8,058 bases of DNA, taken from the IMG/VR virus record IMGVR_UViG_2585427776_000015, positions 1 through 8,058 of that record, one strand, 5' to 3'. Every line of letters begins with the position of its first letter. Position 1 is the stretch's first letter. Both the position numbers and the translations under genes were made by a program. The DNA is from a virus (lineage: Duplodnaviria > Heunggongvirae > Uroviricota > Caudoviricetes). Positions 1 through 6,628 of this stretch are shown here, piece by piece. The notes under the pieces were generated by a model. It was not told the DNA's origin and ran no database searches. It saw only the letters and a program-made list of their open reading frames with translations.

Positions 1-544
1 ATGGAAGTCAACAAAAAGCAGCTGGCTGACATTTTCGGTGCGAGTATCCGTACCATTCAGAACTGGCAGGAACAGGGAATGCCCGTTCTGCGAGGCGGTG
101 GCAAGGGTAATGAGGTGCTTTATGACTCTGCCGCCGTTATAAAATGGTATGCCGAAAGGGATGCTGAAATTGAGAACGAAAAGCTGCGCCGGGAGGTTGA
201 AGAACTGCGGCAGTCCAGCGAGGCAGATCTCCAGCCAGGGACTATTGAGTACGAACGCCATCGACTTACGCGTGCGCAGGCCGACGCACAGGAACTGAAG
301 AATGCCAGAGACTCCGCTGAAGTGGTGGAAACCGCATTCTGTACTTTCGTGTTGTCGCGGATCGCAGGTGAAATTGCCAGTATTCTCGACGGGATCCCCC
401 TGTCGGTGCAGCGGCGTTTTCCGGAACTGGAAAACCGACATGTTGATTTCCTGAAACGGGATATCATCAAAGCCATGAACAAAGCAGCCGCGCTGGATGA
501 ACTGATACCTTACCGAAATCGGTACGGATACCGCGAAAGAGCAG

Positions 545-552
<8 letters not shown>
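1..552 (+). CDS. nu1: Phage terminase small subunit, lambda gpNu1-like; last ~10 residues diverge (deletion junction)
   Basis: 183-aa ORF; first ~170 aa (MEVNKKQLADIFGASIRTIQNWQEQGMPV...KAMNKAAALDELIP) match lambda Nu1 as I recall it, including the N-terminal HTH region. The tail (YRNRYGYRERADL) is not Nu1-like. ATG is at window position 1. Confidence 0.8.
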
Positions 553-1748
<1,196 letters not shown>

Positions 1749-1759
1749 TGAGCCGCTGA

Positions 1760-2227
1760 TGCTTGAACCCGCCTATTGCACCACCAGATATTCCGGCAGG
1801 CTTCGTGGCTGTTTTCAACAGTGATGAGGCATCGTGGCATCTCGTTGAAGACCATCGGGGTAAAACGGTTTATGACGTGGCTTCCGGCGACGCGTTATTT
1901 ATTTCTGAACTCGGTCCGTTACCGGAAAATGTTACCTGGTTATCCCCGGAAGGGGAGTTTCAGAAGTGGAACGGCACAGCCTGGGTGAAGGATACGGAAG
2001 CAGAAAAACTGTTCCGGATCCGGGAGGCGGAAGAAACAAAAAACAGCCTGATGCAGGTAGCCAGTGAGCATATTGCGCCGCTTCAGGATGCTGCAGATCT
2101 GGAAATCGCAACGGAGGAAGAAACCTCGTTGCTTGAAGCCTGGAAGAAGTATCGGGTGTTGCTGAATCGTGTTGATACATCAACTGCACCTGATATTGAG
2201 TGGCCCGCAATCCCTGTTATGGAATAA
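1760..2227 (+). pseudogene. tfa: Tail fiber assembly protein (Tfa) C-terminal fragment with no credible native start
   Basis: Translation ...[88 protein letters not shown]...[11 protein letters not shown] matches the C-terminal ~150 aa of lambda Tfa from memory. The frame opens just after a stop at 1757-1759, and the only in-frame start is a TTG at 1763 with no RBS. Confidence 0.75.
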
Positions 2228-2587: not shown

Positions 2588-4543
2588 GTGGATACAGCAG
2601 AACATGATGGCAAGTTTGCTTGGGCTAGTTTTTATGAGGCTTTTGCCAACGCGTTACTGACTTGGCGAAATCGTAGAGATGAATTAGTCAAAGGTATTCA
2701 TCTAATTGCCCCGGGTGTGGAAGGAATGTCCCATCTGCAGGACAAATCTATTATGGGAGAGATCTTTCCCTTAAAAGACATTTGTCCGTTTACTACTATG
2801 GGCTTGTTCAATCGTAACTTGACCGACAGCAATCGCAAAATTATTGCTGCCAAGCTAGCGAATTTGTTGGGCGTGAACGAACCGATTCCTGACTCCTTTG
2901 CCGGAATCCCTCTGTTGAATAACCAAAAATCTTGGTTCTTTGGTTATGAAAAGTCACGCGACCCTAATGACATTGAATGCTTGTGGGAAATGTTCTCACA
3001 GGCAATGACCTTTGCGGATAACCAGAATACTAACTCTGCAGACTTCACTGCCGCATATGACATCGCTTCTACAGTAATGAATGTCGGTTGGAATCTCACC
3101 ATGGGGTTGTACTGGACCCGTCCTTGGTTCTACCCCACTTTAGATAGCCAGTCGCAGTATTACATTCAGACAGTGTTAAACATTAAGATCATTAAAAACG
3201 GGGCAAAAGGTCGCTGTAGTGGACAAAGTTACCTGAGTCTTATGCGGGCGCTGAACGAGGTCTTTACCCAACCAAACTATCCGGTTCATTCTTTCCCAGA
3301 ACTTTCCTTATCAGCGTGGAATACAGATCTTAGCCAGTCTAAAGATGAGGTGGCAAATAGAACGTGGAAAGCCTCTTTACTGAATAAAATTAAGGCGTTA
3401 TGCCTGAAAAAAAATGGCCCTTATTTCACTGCTTCGGAGTTGGAAGAAAACTACTTGGACGTTTTCAAGGTAGAGCATCCTGAGAGCAAAACTGTTACAA
3501 GCTCAATCTACTTTTATCTACAGAAACTATGCAATGATGATGAGTTAAAGTCCCTCGAGTCCGGAAATTATGAATACCTGAATTTTGAGAAAAACGAATC
3601 CCAGACGATAACTGAGGAAACTGTCGAAGAGAGTGCGCTGTCGCCAAAACTCACCCACGTTCCTTATGACATCAGTCATCTGGTGCAGGATGGCTGTTTC
3701 TTGGAAGAGGCTAAGATCCAACTCACACTTCAGCGCCTGATCGACAAGAAAAACCTGATATTACAAGGACCACCCGGAACTGGAAAAACTTGGTTAGCGC
3801 GACGTCTGGCGTACTGCTTGATGGGAGAAAAAGCACCTGAGCGTATTAGCGCGGTGCAATTTCACCCGAACCTCTCTTACGAAGACTTTATTCGCGGCTG
3901 GCGTCCAGGTAAAGAAGGGCAATTGACGCTAATTGATGGACCTTTTGTAAATGCAATCAAAACTGCAGTCAATAATCCTACCTCGAAATATGTGGTGATA
4001 ATTGAAGAGATTAATCGTGGCAATCCGGCGCAAATCTTCGGTGAAACACTCACGTTGATGGAAGCAGATAAACGCACGCCGACTGAGGCATTATCTCTTT
4101 CCTATCCTAAAAATGCTGATGAAAAAATATACATTCCTGAGAATCTATATATCATCGGTACGATGAATATTGCAGACCGCTCACTCGCACTACTTGACCT
4201 AGCGCTGCGCCGTCGTTTCGCGTTTATCGATCTAAAGCCAGCTTTTAATGACGCGTGGAGAAACTGGGTAAATTATAATTACGCAATTGATTTTGACATG
4301 TTAGCATTCATCAAATCTCGACTGACGGTATTAAACGATATGCTGGCAAAAGATGTTACCTTAGGACCACAGTTTTGTATCGGTCACAGCTATGTCACCC
4401 CAGCTATCGGCCAAAAAATCAACGATGCCCAGGCTTGGTATGAACAAGTCGTTGATACAGAGATCTGCCCTTTGCTCGCCGAATATTGGTTCGATGCTCC
4501 AAATAAAGTCGATGAAGCCAGAAAAGTGTTATTAGCAAAATGA
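2588..4543 (+). CDS. McrB-family AAA+ GTPase with an N-terminal ~380-390 aa region of unknown family (Type IV restriction motor / specificity subunit homolog)
   Basis: C-terminal ~270 aa carry Walker A GPPGTGKT (3766-3789), Walker B-like VVIIEEINR (3993-4019), the McrB signature MNxxDRS (MNIADRS, 4163-4183) and RRRF, and align throughout with E. coli McrB from memory (ILQGPPGVGKTFVARRLAY..., YIIGLMNTADRSLAVVDYALRRRF). The N-terminal region shows no similarity I can recognise. The open frame begins at TTG 2561 (no RBS); GTG 2588 is preferred because of the GGAG 5 nt upstream; the first in-frame ATG is about codon 56. Confidence 0.85.
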   Translation: MDTAEHDGKFAWASFYEAFANALLTWRNRRDELVKGIHLIAPGVEGMSHLQDKSIMGEIFPLKDICPFTTMGLFNRNLTDSNRKIIAAKLANLLGVNEPIPDSFAGIPLLNNQKSWFFGYEKSRDPNDIECLWEMFSQAMTFADNQNTNSADFTAAYDIASTVMNVGWNLTMGLYWTRPWFYPTLDSQSQYYIQTVLNIKIIKNGAKGRCSGQSYLSLMRALNEVFTQPNYPVHSFPELSLSAWNTDLSQSKDEVANRTWKASLLNKIKALCLKKNGPYFTASELEENYLDVFKVEHPESKTVTSSIYFYLQKLCNDDELKSLESGNYEYLNFEKNESQTITEETVEESALSPKLTHVPYDISHLVQDGCFLEEAKIQLTLQRLIDKKNLILQGPPGTGKTWLARRLAYCLMGEKAPERISAVQFHPNLSYEDFIRGWRPGKEGQLTLIDGPFVNAIKTAVNNPTSKYVVIIEEINRGNPAQIFGETLTLMEADKRTPTEALSLSYPKNADEKIYIPENLYIIGTMNIADRSLALLDLALRRRFAFIDLKPAFNDAWRNWVNYNYAIDFDMLAFIKSRLTVLNDMLAKDVTLGPQFCIGHSYVTPAIGQKINDAQAWYEQVVDTEICPLLAEYWFDAPNKVDEARKVLLAK

Positions 4544-5661
4544 CGACAATAACCGGGAGTGAGCAACATACAGCATCACGTATTCCCATGCGAAATATCT
4601 GGATGCTGATGCTGTACGCTTCAGATCTGTTTCGCCAGTTAGGGCGCAATCAGATCGCAGTAGAAGATAACCCAGCAGAAATCCCCGACCTGGTGGCGAC
4701 AATCCTCCTTCATGAGATTACGCTGCGCCGACGTCGCAATTTAAATATGGGATACCAAACTTGTCATGCGGCCCTGAACCGGGTGAGAGGGCGCATTGAC
4801 ATACTGTATACTGCCAGTCATCAACTGCTGGAACGGGGACAGGTTGCCTGCCATTTTCAAGACATAACCCTCAACACCCCCCGAAATCGCTATGTTCGCT
4901 GTGCGTTAGAACGTCTGGCCTCAATCATAGTGAAACCGTCTTTGGCGGCAGATTGCCATTTTATGGCAATATCACTTCGCCGTGAGGGGATAAATGGAGG
5001 ATATCCTGCCCCCCACGAATTACCCTCAGTGTGGCGTTTTGGACGCCATGATGCCGCAGATAAACCGATGGTCGATGCCGCACGATTAGCTTTTGAACTG
5101 CTGATGCCGACCGAAGATCAAGGCCAATATCTTTTACCTGCGCCCTCAAATAACCTTTACTGGATGAGAAGACTATTTGAAAAAGGTATCGCTGGCTTAT
5201 ATCGTGTACACCTTGACAAAACAACTTGGCAGGTCTCTGCAGGGAAAGAGCTGAAATGGGCGTTGAGCGATCAAAGTGCAGGTAGTGCAGAGATTTTCCC
5301 GACAATGAAGTCAGACATTATTCTGGAACACAAGACTGCCCAGCGGCGTATTATTATCGATACCAAATTTAATTCGATTCTGACAAAGGGTTGGCATCGG
5401 GAGCAATCACTACGTAATGGCTATATTTATCAGCTATATACCTACCTTAGAACACAGGAGAACAAGACGGATCCGCTTTCGCTCAATGCCGCTGGTCTTC
5501 TACTTCATCCAGCTGTTGGCTATATGCTTAATGAGTATGTTGTCACTCAGGGACATAAGATCCATTTTGCTACAGTAGATATGACGGTAGATGCTAAAGC
5601 AATTAAAAAACAATTGCTGGCAATAGCCCATGATTGTGCAGGAGTCGCGGTTGATGACTAA
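4540..5661 (+). CDS. McrC-family PD-(D/E)xK endonuclease subunit (373 aa), translationally coupled to the McrB-like gene
   Basis: Start ATG overlaps the upstream stop (ATGA at 4540-4543). N-terminus IPMRNIWMLMLYAS resembles E. coli McrC IPVRNIYYMLTYAW. Nuclease core SDIILEHK...RRIIIDTKFNS (D259 at 5314-5316; D274-T-K276 at 5359-5367) parallels McrC ETDITI...ILIVDAKYY. The following NGYIYQLYTYL resembles McrC QNLYQLMNYL. Confidence 0.85.
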   Translation: MTTITGSEQHTASRIPMRNIWMLMLYASDLFRQLGRNQIAVEDNPAEIPDLVATILLHEITLRRRRNLNMGYQTCHAALNRVRGRIDILYTASHQLLERGQVACHFQDITLNTPRNRYVRCALERLASIIVKPSLAADCHFMAISLRREGINGGYPAPHELPSVWRFGRHDAADKPMVDAARLAFELLMPTEDQGQYLLPAPSNNLYWMRRLFEKGIAGLYRVHLDKTTWQVSAGKELKWALSDQSAGSAEIFPTMKSDIILEHKTAQRRIIIDTKFNSILTKGWHREQSLRNGYIYQLYTYLRTQENKTDPLSLNAAGLLLHPAVGYMLNEYVVTQGHKIHFATVDMTVDAKAIKKQLLAIAHDCAGVAVDD

Positions 5662-6017
5662 CCATCCTATAGGGCACTGGCTGTAATATAATCAATAGTT
5701 TCAATTAAGTAGCTGTTATCCGTGCTTAGTCATCATATGACGCACCACGGTCTAATTTTCCTGCTCATACATTGATATATCCTTGTCGTGCCCGGAAAGT
5801 CGCAGTCCACTATGAGGTATACCGATTGCCAGCACCAAAAGCTTCTTTGTGATTATTATATCGGGGAATGCCTATTTTTTTAGTGACAATATCAGATAGC
5901 AATTAATAAGCGGTGCCGGTAATGGATGTTATGTTTAATGTATAGACACAGCCATCATAAACTAAACGTCTGTTGTTCGCTCATAACCGACATTTATCTC
6001 AGTTATGGAGGATAATT

Positions 6018-6098
6018 ATGTATGCAGATAATGGGGCAGACAGTCGTGGAGTAAACAAGGTTTTGCACTGCTTGGCGGCATCGTTATCTTATTTTTAA
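6018..6098 (+). CDS. Hypothetical 26-aa small protein (MYADNGADSRGVNKVLHCLAASLSYF), speculative
   Basis: Consensus Shine-Dalgarno GGAGG (6007-6011) sits 6 nt upstream of the ATG, inside otherwise ORF-free AT-rich DNA. The C-terminal half is hydrophobic. There is no homology evidence; the call rests on the RBS only. Confidence 0.2.
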   Translation: MYADNGADSRGVNKVLHCLAASLSYF

Positions 6099-6141
6099 TT
6101 ATGTGCCTCTTAACATAAGTTGGGACAAAACAGAGACACAT

Positions 6142-6173
6142 AAGGTCTCACAAAGGTCTGCAAGGCCTCACAT
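6142..6173. repeat. Three tandem imperfect ~10-bp direct repeats (AAGGTCTCACA / AAGGTCTGCA / AGGCCTCACA)
   Basis: Read directly from the sequence at 6142-6152, 6153-6162 and 6163-6172. Spacing is one helical turn, as expected for an iterated protein-binding site. Confidence 0.5.
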
Positions 6174-6361
6174 GTATTGAGATGTTAATAAAATGTAGAC
6201 TTGTAATTTGGATATAAATGGTAGAGAAAACCTTTCCCCAAAATAAAAACGAACGTCAATGAAATCAAACGGTTGAATAAAGTTAATTTTGGCTAATAAA
6301 AAGACAATAAAATAATTTTTATCATTAAATATCAATGACTTGAATTCATGGTTTTTATATA

Positions 6362-6526
6362 CTGCTGCGCCATATGGGTTGGACTGAAGCGGCTGACCTG
6401 ATTGTTAAAGGTATGGAAGGCGCAATCAATGCCAAGACCGTAACTTATGACTTCGAACGTCTGATGGAAGGCGCTAAGCTGCTGAAATGTTCAGAGTTTG
6501 GTGAAGCGATCATCGAAAACATGTAA
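6362..6526 (+). pseudogene. icdC: icd 3' fragment: last 54 codons of isocitrate dehydrogenase plus stop, the duplicated attachment region (icdC-like)
   Basis: In-frame translation [54 protein letters not shown] matches the Icd C-terminus from memory. Homology begins abruptly at 6362, after AT-rich non-icd DNA. 165 bp, no start codon and no upstream icd sequence. Confidence 0.85.
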
Positions 6527-6549
6527 TCTCTCCATGTGTTAAATATTGA

Positions 6550-6581
6550 AACGGGCGTATAACACGCCCGTTGTTTTATTT
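6550..6581 (+). terminator. Rho-independent terminator downstream of the icd 3' fragment
   Basis: 9-bp GC-rich stem (6550-6558 / 6564-6572, aacgggcgt..acgcccgtt) with a 5-nt loop, followed by a T-rich run (gttttattta), 24 nt after the icd stop. Confidence 0.6.
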
Positions 6582-6628
6582 ATGTGGATATTATTAATAG
6601 CATATCGAGCATATTTATATGAAGCCCA

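Follow-up and report, generated by a model that had tools for sequence, protein, structure and literature searches.

Genes and features at the right end of the prophage

The 8,058-nucleotide stretch of DNA analysed here, referred to below as the window, forms the right-hand end of a cryptic prophage of the phage-21/e14 kind that sits in icd. A pair of McrBC-like defence genes is followed in it by a spacer of 712 bp (5662-6373) and by icdC, and the native icd terminator lies at 6550-6572, 3′ of the icdC fragment (Table 1). The spacer is 100% identical to several E. coli chromosomes. RefSeq annotation of strain 504239 gives the order lambdoid remnant, AAA ATPase and McrC, spacer, icdC and iraM, the lambdoid remnant being scrambled and made up of a porin, quuD, ylcG and a tail-fibre assembly fragment. 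Scanning the full window against Rfam, with E values of up to 1, returned nothing in 5600-6400; the sole confident Rfam match in the window is IS009, at 1986-2184.

Table 1. Features of the window discussed in the text, in window coordinates.
Feature	Position	Strand	Basis or remark
McrBC-like defence cargo: McrB-like AAA ATPase and McrC	2588..5661	+	RefSeq annotation; Pfam McrBC, AAA_5, McrB_lid
Conserved non-coding element of ~200 bp, from McrC to the module	5795..5990	.	overlaps the module start by its final ~25 bp
Diverged copy of the ~208-bp att-proximal module	5976..6180	.	homologous to lambda 27,320-27,530, phage 21 (M61865) and KW21 L013:4857-5064
Shine-Dalgarno-like GGAGG	6007..6011	+	G6010 is the minority allele; the commoner form is GGAAG
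26-codon ORF, MYADNGADSRGVNKVLHCLAASLSYF then TAA	6018..6098	+	direct reading, ORF list
Frame +1 tail, ...WDKTETHKVSQRSARPHMY then stop	6103..6180	+	C-terminal codons of the family 50-aa ORF; frameshifted from the 26-codon ORF
17-bp hairpin (6136-6175) then CUCUGUUUUGUCCC (6122-6135)	6122..6175	-	folds, pairing, SfII annotation
attR arm of an icd-integrating phage-21-type prophage	6181..6373	.	arm common to many cargo types
icdC, displaced isocitrate dehydrogenase 3′ end, attR core side	6374..6526	+	annotation, ORF list

The McrBC-like pair occupies the moron or defence cargo slot of icd prophages of the e14/phage-21 kind. K-12 e14 carries mcrA at the equivalent position, and in other strains the same slot holds sitABCD, DUF3800 or DUF2971/DUF4236 genes. 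This likeness describes the neighbourhood only; the short ORF under study, introduced below, falls in a conserved module to the right of the slot. When the right ~250 bp of the spacer, which start at ~6108 and so take in the tail of the module besides the attR arm, are used as a query, ~1,468 E. coli records match at 91-96% identity, with any cargo. The left ~450 bp of the spacer, including the ORF, are found in ~305-308 genomes, always with McrBC-like genes. This arm is also present in phage 21, where it separates the module from the icd′ segment. The e14 prophage of K-12 was considered as a comparator for the ORF and rejected, as its arm sequence differs and its alignment beyond the icd core is poor.

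Between McrC and the module lies a conserved non-coding element of which copies, 76-79% identical, occur on a plasmid of Erwinia billingiae and in a tRNA-Leu defence island of E. coli. A search for a conserved ORF in this element gave none, and no convincing structure was found on either strand with the only three sequence types available, a set to which wider scans added no further types. BLASTN searches with 5662-6125 gave no match in phages and a single match in plasmids, the Erwinia one, which covers the upstream element only.

The 26-codon frame and its start site

Direct reading of the spacer gives GGAGG at 6007-6011, the six nucleotides ATAATT at 6012-6017 and ATG at 6018-6020, from which 26 sense codons run to a TAA at 6096-6098, in agreement with the ORF list. 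The same frame in the list also opens with a TTG at 5973, giving 41 aa. The motif, its spacing and the length of the frame had been reported in a first-pass annotation made from the sequence alone, and all of them are present as described there. That annotation had further held such an initiation site to be unlikely by chance in DNA of about 30% GC, and neither part of this statement survives measurement. Local windows around the ORF have a GC content of 35-37%. On both strands of the window, GGAGG-N4-9-ATG occurs once, where 1.21 ± 1.10 occurrences are expected from dinucleotide-preserving shuffles of the window (n = 200), and at least one occurrence is seen in 137 of the 200 shuffles. For the 712-bp spacer alone, a region chosen post hoc, the corresponding P value is ~0.06, falling to ~0.02 if at least 20 codons are also demanded.

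The C-terminal half of the peptide had been described as hydrophobic. The stretch in question, VLHCLAASLSYF, has 12 residues, His, two Ser and Tyr among them, and is shorter than the hydrophobic segment of ~18 residues or more taken as the criterion for the membrane span of a type I toxin. An exact-sequence look-up of the 26-aa product returned one gene call, made by JGI/IMG and left without a name. Neither this peptide nor the 53-aa, 50-aa and lambda 53-aa peptides discussed below match any entry of Pfam, NCBIfam or PHROGs. Among these peptides, one PHROG match at E = 0.15 was disregarded. A full-text literature search for the peptide strings matched no papers, and none of the strings turned up in the supplementary data of the Ribo-seq paper on small genes of O157 Sakai. 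At the level of RNA, the plus-strand fold of 5990-6110 is not better than that of shuffled sequences (z-score -0.5), for which reason sequestration of the Shine-Dalgarno motif or an attenuator was rejected, and no alternative terminator/antiterminator pairing was found.

A diverged copy of the lambdoid att-proximal module

Alignment with the icd prophages of Nissle 1917 and KW21 extends the similarity of the right part of the spacer leftwards past ~6108, to ~5976, at lower identity. When the 208-bp KW21 copy is used as a query, nearly all of 80 IMG/VR prophage loci match it over just ~208 bp; to the left of the match their DNA is unrelated, and farther to the right it differs from locus to locus. 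In the phage collection the same query matches phage 21 (M61865) with 88% identity over 205 nt, lambda (J02459, 27,320-27,464) with 83% identity over the first 140 nt, and SfI, SfII and SfIV over the last 60 nt. Only this better-preserved copy, used as the query, brought out the link to lambda and phage 21. Lambda, phage 21 and SfII agree in the placement of the module, with accessory genes on one side, the att arm on the other, and attP between the module and int. The window copy has McrC to its left, and the icd-type arm and icdC to its right.

Conservation is uneven along the window copy. The leader (5965-6020) is 80-84% identical to the module family, and the interior (6021-6107) is weakly but significantly lambda-like, with an alignment score of 53 against 30.7 ± 4.7 for shuffled sequences, 0 of 1000 of which reach it. 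To the right of 6107 the window shows 94% identity to KW21, which points to a recombination breakpoint inside the module. At the positions homologous to GGAGG, other copies read GGCGG (lambda), GGTAG, GGCAG or GGTGG.

The module contains an ORF in many of its copies, annotated as “hypothetical protein” on ~1,000 contigs (examples are ALL87028.1 and UniRef A0A0J2BMF9_ECOLX, of 50 aa, and, for lambda 27,372-27,533, ACT29871.1, of 53 aa). ATG 6018 aligns base for base with lambda 27,372, the first ATG of the 53-codon ORF of lambda, and the icd prophages of Nissle 1917 and KW21 hold an intact ORF of 50-51 codons in this stretch, for example MLGGESMKEKKTAAPFVVTFIFIGYASRNTRWDKTETHKVSQRSARPHMY. With this family the window shares the start position, the location between cargo and att arm, and the last 19 codons, WDKTETHKVSQRSARPHMY, which are found at 6121-6180 in frame +1 of the window. 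The first 26 residues, however, have no protein identity to the family. Relative to lambda the window carries changes of +4, -1 and -1 nt before the hydrophobic part, a net change of +2, and as a result of these indels frame 0 departs from the lambda frame at about codon 7. Frame +2 of the window, which has no start codon, reads GGIVILFLIMCLLT and then a stop, and is homologous to ITAIFLLVMQVVV of lambda. The 26-codon ORF is thus a broken module copy read out of frame. A scan of genome contigs with the family alignment gave one partial locus.

The right third of the module also holds a hairpin on the opposite strand, and folding the copies of the window, KW21, phage 21 and SfII gives it energies between -17 and -24 kcal/mol. 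In a set of 16 distinct sequences, 93.8% of the hairpin cells are paired, and seven pairs vary, on one side only, every change being wobble-compatible. The structure is assigned to the minus-strand RNA, because several of its pairs are G-U there and would be A-C mismatches on the plus strand. A covariation test on the 16 sequences found the pairing kept and the shuffles not exceeded; when lambda-type copies are added, one compensatory pair (U-A to C-G) appears, in two sequences. The depositors of SfII annotated the homologous stretch as a “putative rho-independent terminator” downstream of int, and a simple scan of the window places a minus-strand terminator-like site at 6149-6133. The same scan gave no promoter-like site on the minus strand of 5500-6600. 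The int gene of phage 21 lies ~460 nt upstream on the hairpin strand, across the icd′ segment and attP.

In lambda, the hairpin of tI/sib lies across attP from int and terminates PI transcripts, and in read-through PL transcripts sib is an RNase III site that destabilises int mRNA. The module is like tI/sib in that the minus-strand hairpin and U-tract of the window lie beyond the att arm from the int of the excised phage, in that the homologous stretch of SfII is annotated as a terminator after int, and in that the left 140 nt of the module are similar to the lambda DNA just past tI. It is unlike tI/sib in that the tI hairpin of lambda itself (~27,543-27,578) is a different sequence, which sits between attP and the lambda copy of the module hairpin (~27,475-27,509), and in that the window site, in a decayed and integrated prophage, is uncoupled from any int gene. 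By analogy with lambda, termination and RNase III processing might take place at the module hairpin, which we regard as a candidate intrinsic terminator or sib-like site for the int transcripts of the excised phage. The hairpin and its U-tract are the best-supported candidate for a functional part of the module.

Allelic variation, coding status and interpretation

Alleles of the ORF were examined in six sampled genomes, 98.0-99.6% identical to the window, and counted from the identity bands of short probes over the 308 complete E. coli genomes that carry the segment. All six of the sampled relatives differ from the window at position 6010, where they have A (GGAAG); in this alignment GGAGG is confined to the lineage of the window. 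A 60-nt probe (5981-6040) is identical to the window in 44 of the 308 genomes and mismatched in the other 264. Three of the six relatives carry C6071A, which turns codon 18 from TGC into TGA. A 66-nt probe (6041-6106) is identical in 269 genomes and variant in 39, and none of the 308 differs from a 47-nt probe (6072-6118); since the former varies and the latter does not, the variation is confined to 6041-6071. From these counts we estimate that ~14% of carriers have GGAGG and 26 codons and, extrapolating from the sampled genomes, that ~73% would have GGAAG and 26 codons and ~13% GGAAG and a 17-codon stump. Among the sampled genomes the nonsense allele is seen solely on the GGAAG background. 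One metagenome contig (L151) is frameshifted by an additional T at 6061-6064. The ORF and its initiation signals are thus not kept intact among close relatives.

A further allele concerns the run of T at 6092-6096, which has five T in all 308 complete genomes and four in none. A database protein of 53 aa (P0045) is the 26-codon ORF fused to the frame +1 tail, and comes from two independent short-read assemblies that have T4 rather than T5 at 6092-6096, both of them with GGAGG. The T4 allele opens a 53-codon frame that ends at the stop codon of the module family, and an intact 53-codon version may therefore exist or once have existed. In the family search and the exact-sequence look-up, no protein-level homologues came to light outside the same locus; P0045, which is that locus with a T run one nucleotide shorter, was the only form in which the family search returned the peptide.

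Our preferred reading, which we hold to be probably correct, is that the 26-codon ORF is not a gene and represents an incidental frame in a diverged copy of the att-proximal module. In lambda-like phages the module lies between accessory cargo genes and the attachment-site arm, under a constraint that presumably acts on nucleic acid and not on protein. GGAGG differs by a single base from the commoner GGAAG, and indels shift the window from the family frame after ~6 codons, with a stop at codon 27. In the excised phage the hairpin would lie downstream of int, across attP, in an arrangement like that of lambda tI/sib; in the integrated and decayed prophage it would be parted from int and idle. 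If McrBC transcripts read through, ribosomes might occasionally initiate at the GGAGG and ATG, without consequence. The ORF appears to be unconstrained because GGAGG is a minority allele among carriers, because nonsense and frameshift alleles circulate, because the combination of Shine-Dalgarno motif and ATG is at chance level in the window, and because the family searches gave no match and the same strand has no gene downstream. Nor do the copies of the module keep one reading frame, as set out below. Several observations count against this reading. Within the spacer, a Shine-Dalgarno motif with 6-nt spacing and at least 20 codons is uncommon (P ~0.02, as above); GGAGG together with T4 in two assemblies gives a 53-codon frame; phage-21-type copies show a modest synonymous excess (20 against 13.8, in a biased sample); and the covariation of the hairpin is weak.

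Alternatively, though we consider this unlikely, the module ORF may be a true gene for a small membrane protein in lambda, phage 21 and other prophages, and the window copy a pseudogene of it, with the 26-codon frame as its leftover 5′ end. The gene would specify, in 43-53 codons, a protein with basic ends (VKEKK at the N-terminus) and a short hydrophobic segment between them, and the window copy would have lost it through indels. In favour of this, most phage-21-type copies keep the ORF unbroken, it has been called as “hypothetical protein” on the contigs mentioned above, and frame +2 of the window retains hydrophobic GFALLGGIVILFLIMCLL, homologous to lambda ITAIFLLVMQVVV. Among 27 phage-21-type haplotypes, a sample gathered through peptide patterns and hence biased toward intact frames, there are 20 synonymous changes where 13.8 are expected, 31 non-synonymous changes and one nonsense change; 24 of the 52 changes are at third codon positions, and the signal is confined to the hydrophobic first half. 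Comparison between module types, however, argues against a conserved protein. A 2-nt indel separates lambda-type from phage-21-type copies, and beyond it the two types translate homologous DNA, TGGYTATGCARGTCGTA, in different frames. Where the frame is shared, five of the six codons that differ are non-synonymous, and third positions show no excess of changes. The products of L105-type and L133-type copies are different again. A W43-stop allele, found on 960 contigs against 996 with the full-length form, is as common as the latter. ATGs are present upstream in all three frames, so any indel is automatically rescued and “repair” of the N-terminus comes free. In addition, the tail of the ORF coincides with the opposite-strand hairpin, and neither family models nor the literature search for peptide strings gave a match. 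The record of phage DN1 labels this span, which there belongs to lambda-derived DNA, as “antisense RNA” and not as a CDS.

On this evidence it is improbable that the family ORF is a real protein gene. Somewhat less probable again is the fuller proposal that lambdoid phages, lambda among them (27,372-27,533, beside sib/attP), have in this module a true but not yet annotated gene for a small membrane protein, and that the 26-codon ORF is a very recent frameshift allele of it. If this proposal were true, the window would stem from a lineage in which the gene had been re-framed, the T4 allele giving 53 codons with a perfect Shine-Dalgarno motif and the family stop codon kept.

A functional, lineage-specific peptide, whether membrane-active, toxic or an accessory of McrBC, translated through GGAGG from the 3′ part of the McrBC transcript, is very unlikely. 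The motif is perfect and its spacing ideal, read-through is plausible given that no plus-strand terminator-like site was found between McrC and the ORF, and in E. coli the segment always accompanies McrBC cargo. The GGAGG allele is nevertheless present in only 44 of the 308 genomes, codon 18 is a nonsense codon in ~39 of them, a frameshift variant exists, the hydrophobic stretch has only 12 residues, and homologues were recovered from the same locus only; the sequence itself derives from a module that accompanies unrelated cargo in other phages. A type I toxin was considered separately. The ORF resembles Hok, Ldr, Ibs, TisB and ShoB in being a small prophage or intergenic frame with a partly hydrophobic product and a terminator-like hairpin nearby on the opposite strand. 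It differs from them in having no segment of transmembrane length, in not being conserved, in the absence of matches to Rfam antitoxin RNAs or toxin families, and apparently in the lack of a conserved antisense promoter, none having been found in 5500-6600. A type I toxin was rejected on the length of the hydrophobic segment, the apparent lack of such a promoter and the family searches. An upstream ORF or leader peptide controlling a downstream gene, or transcription across the junction of prophage and host, can practically be set aside: a short intergenic ORF with a strong initiation site would suit it, but on the same strand only the start-less icdC fragment and then the icd terminator (6550-6572) lie downstream, no alternative terminator/antiterminator pairing accompanies the poor fold of 5990-6110, and the ORF is not conserved.

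These results bear on the remaining proposals of the first-pass annotation. It had called the ORF an orphan, a description that no longer applies now that DNA homologues have been found in lambda, phage 21 and many prophages. It had offered a membrane-active peptide or toxin, a regulatory leader, or the remnant 5′ end of a deleted phage gene as explanations. The first finds no support, given the minority status of the Shine-Dalgarno allele, the circulating nonsense and frameshift variants, and a hydrophobic run of just 12 residues without a family match, and neither does the second, given what lies downstream on the same strand. The third comes closest to the truth. ATG 6018 is indeed homologous to the start of a hypothetical ORF of 50-53 codons, found at the same place in lambda, phage 21 and many prophages; the break, however, came about by indels and divergence (net +2 nt relative to lambda) and not by a deletion, and it is doubtful that the ancestral 50-53-codon ORF was a protein gene.

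With the preferred reading, that of an incidental frame in a diverged module copy, a false lead is removed from the list of gene candidates, and the ORF holds nothing new. The case shows how a single-base change from GGAAG to GGAGG in decaying phage DNA can mimic a convincing start site. It also draws attention to a family ORF that is called on roughly a thousand contigs and whose coding status is doubtful. The neighbourhood is of a known kind, an accessory-gene slot at the end of a prophage beside an att-proximal, terminator-like hairpin. The ~208-bp module with its conserved hairpin is common to lambda, phage 21, SfII and prophages of varied integration sites, and marks the right-hand border of a slot in which defence and other accessory genes are exchanged.

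The att-proximal module and its similarity change

The att-proximal module is a lambdoid segment of about 208 bp, of which the window carries a copy at 5976-6180. Compared with the KW21 prophage (L013), the window is 94% identical rightwards of 6108 and much less similar leftwards, an abrupt shift relative to the icd prophages. Because identity to other icd prophages changes sharply at this point, comparison of the sequences indicates a recombination breakpoint within the module at approximately 6108, i.e. 10 nt past the stop codon of the 26-codon ORF (start codon at 6018) proposed in the first-pass annotation. That ORF is overlapped by a longer frame on the opposite strand (see table). Minus-strand ORFs are also present in the module copies of KW21, Nissle and lambda, varying in frame and length, and across module copies they look like by-products of composition rather than genes.

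Features of the window and contents of the accessory-gene slot
Feature	Location	Strand	Remarks
IS009 (RF02111)	1986-2184	+	full-length Rfam match; 220.9 bits, gathering score 117
McrBC-like pair	2588-5661		slot content in the window
Element without conserved ORF	5795-5990		about 200 bp; between McrC and the lambdoid module
41-codon ORF	6016-6141	-	overlaps the 26-codon ORF
mcrA			slot content in K-12 e14
sitABCD			slot content in Nissle 1917 and FDAARGOS_1252
DUF3800, DUF2971 and DUF4236 genes			slot content in KW21

The family ORF in lambda and its variants

At the module position, lambda carries a 53-codon member of the family of hypothetical ORFs (MHAGCGEVVKEKKSAASFDITAIFLLVMQ...), at 27,372-27,533 (1653-1814 of L096, a segment of J02459). 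It is not annotated in J02459, some records give it as "hypothetical protein", and the record of phage DN1 (L097), in its lambda-derived part, has this span at 1553-1714 under the label "ncRNA, antisense RNA". Two kinds of shortened version occur. A TGG-to-TGA stop allele at W43 cuts the family ORF to 42 codons and has a similar frequency to the full-length form (960 and 996 contigs, respectively); carriers include the IMG/VR loci L029-L033, L129, L131 and L137, among others, as well as cluster 2 of the exact-sequence look-up of family products. In some prophages (FDAARGOS_1252 (L014) at about 4930-4990, and L093-L095), a deletion of about 85 bp has removed the ORF's start together with its first half, with the leader and hairpin end of the module kept.

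The accessory-gene slot and the adjoining element

The tail-fibre genes and the module bound a slot whose accessory gene content varies between strains (the window, KW21, FDAARGOS_1252, L012 and L003; see table). The McrB-like protein of the window also matches DUF8425 and, weakly, nSTAND3. Only three sequence types were found of the element that follows McrC. Copies with 76-79% identity occur in E. coli within a tRNA-Leu defence island, adjoining restriction-endonuclease genes, and on a conjugative plasmid of Erwinia billingiae, immediately after a serine recombinase and AAA-ATPase pair. In these relatives the element opens with a GC-rich hairpin, GAGCCCTCGCGGGGGCTC, which is degenerate in the window. 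The element's final 25 bp or so (GTCYGC..TCGCTCA) overlap the beginning of the lambdoid module.

Rearrangement of the prophage

In the annotated E. coli locus matching the window (L001), no integrase is found within 8 kb upstream of the McrC-icdC spacer. By the annotation of L001, window positions 1-2227 hold a tail-fibre assembly fragment abutted by a porin gene, quuD (a Q-type antiterminator) and ylcG, and lysis genes lie inverted upstream. The IS009 match falls within the tail-fibre assembly ORF (1763-2227). The prophage is a heavily rearranged, cryptic remnant.
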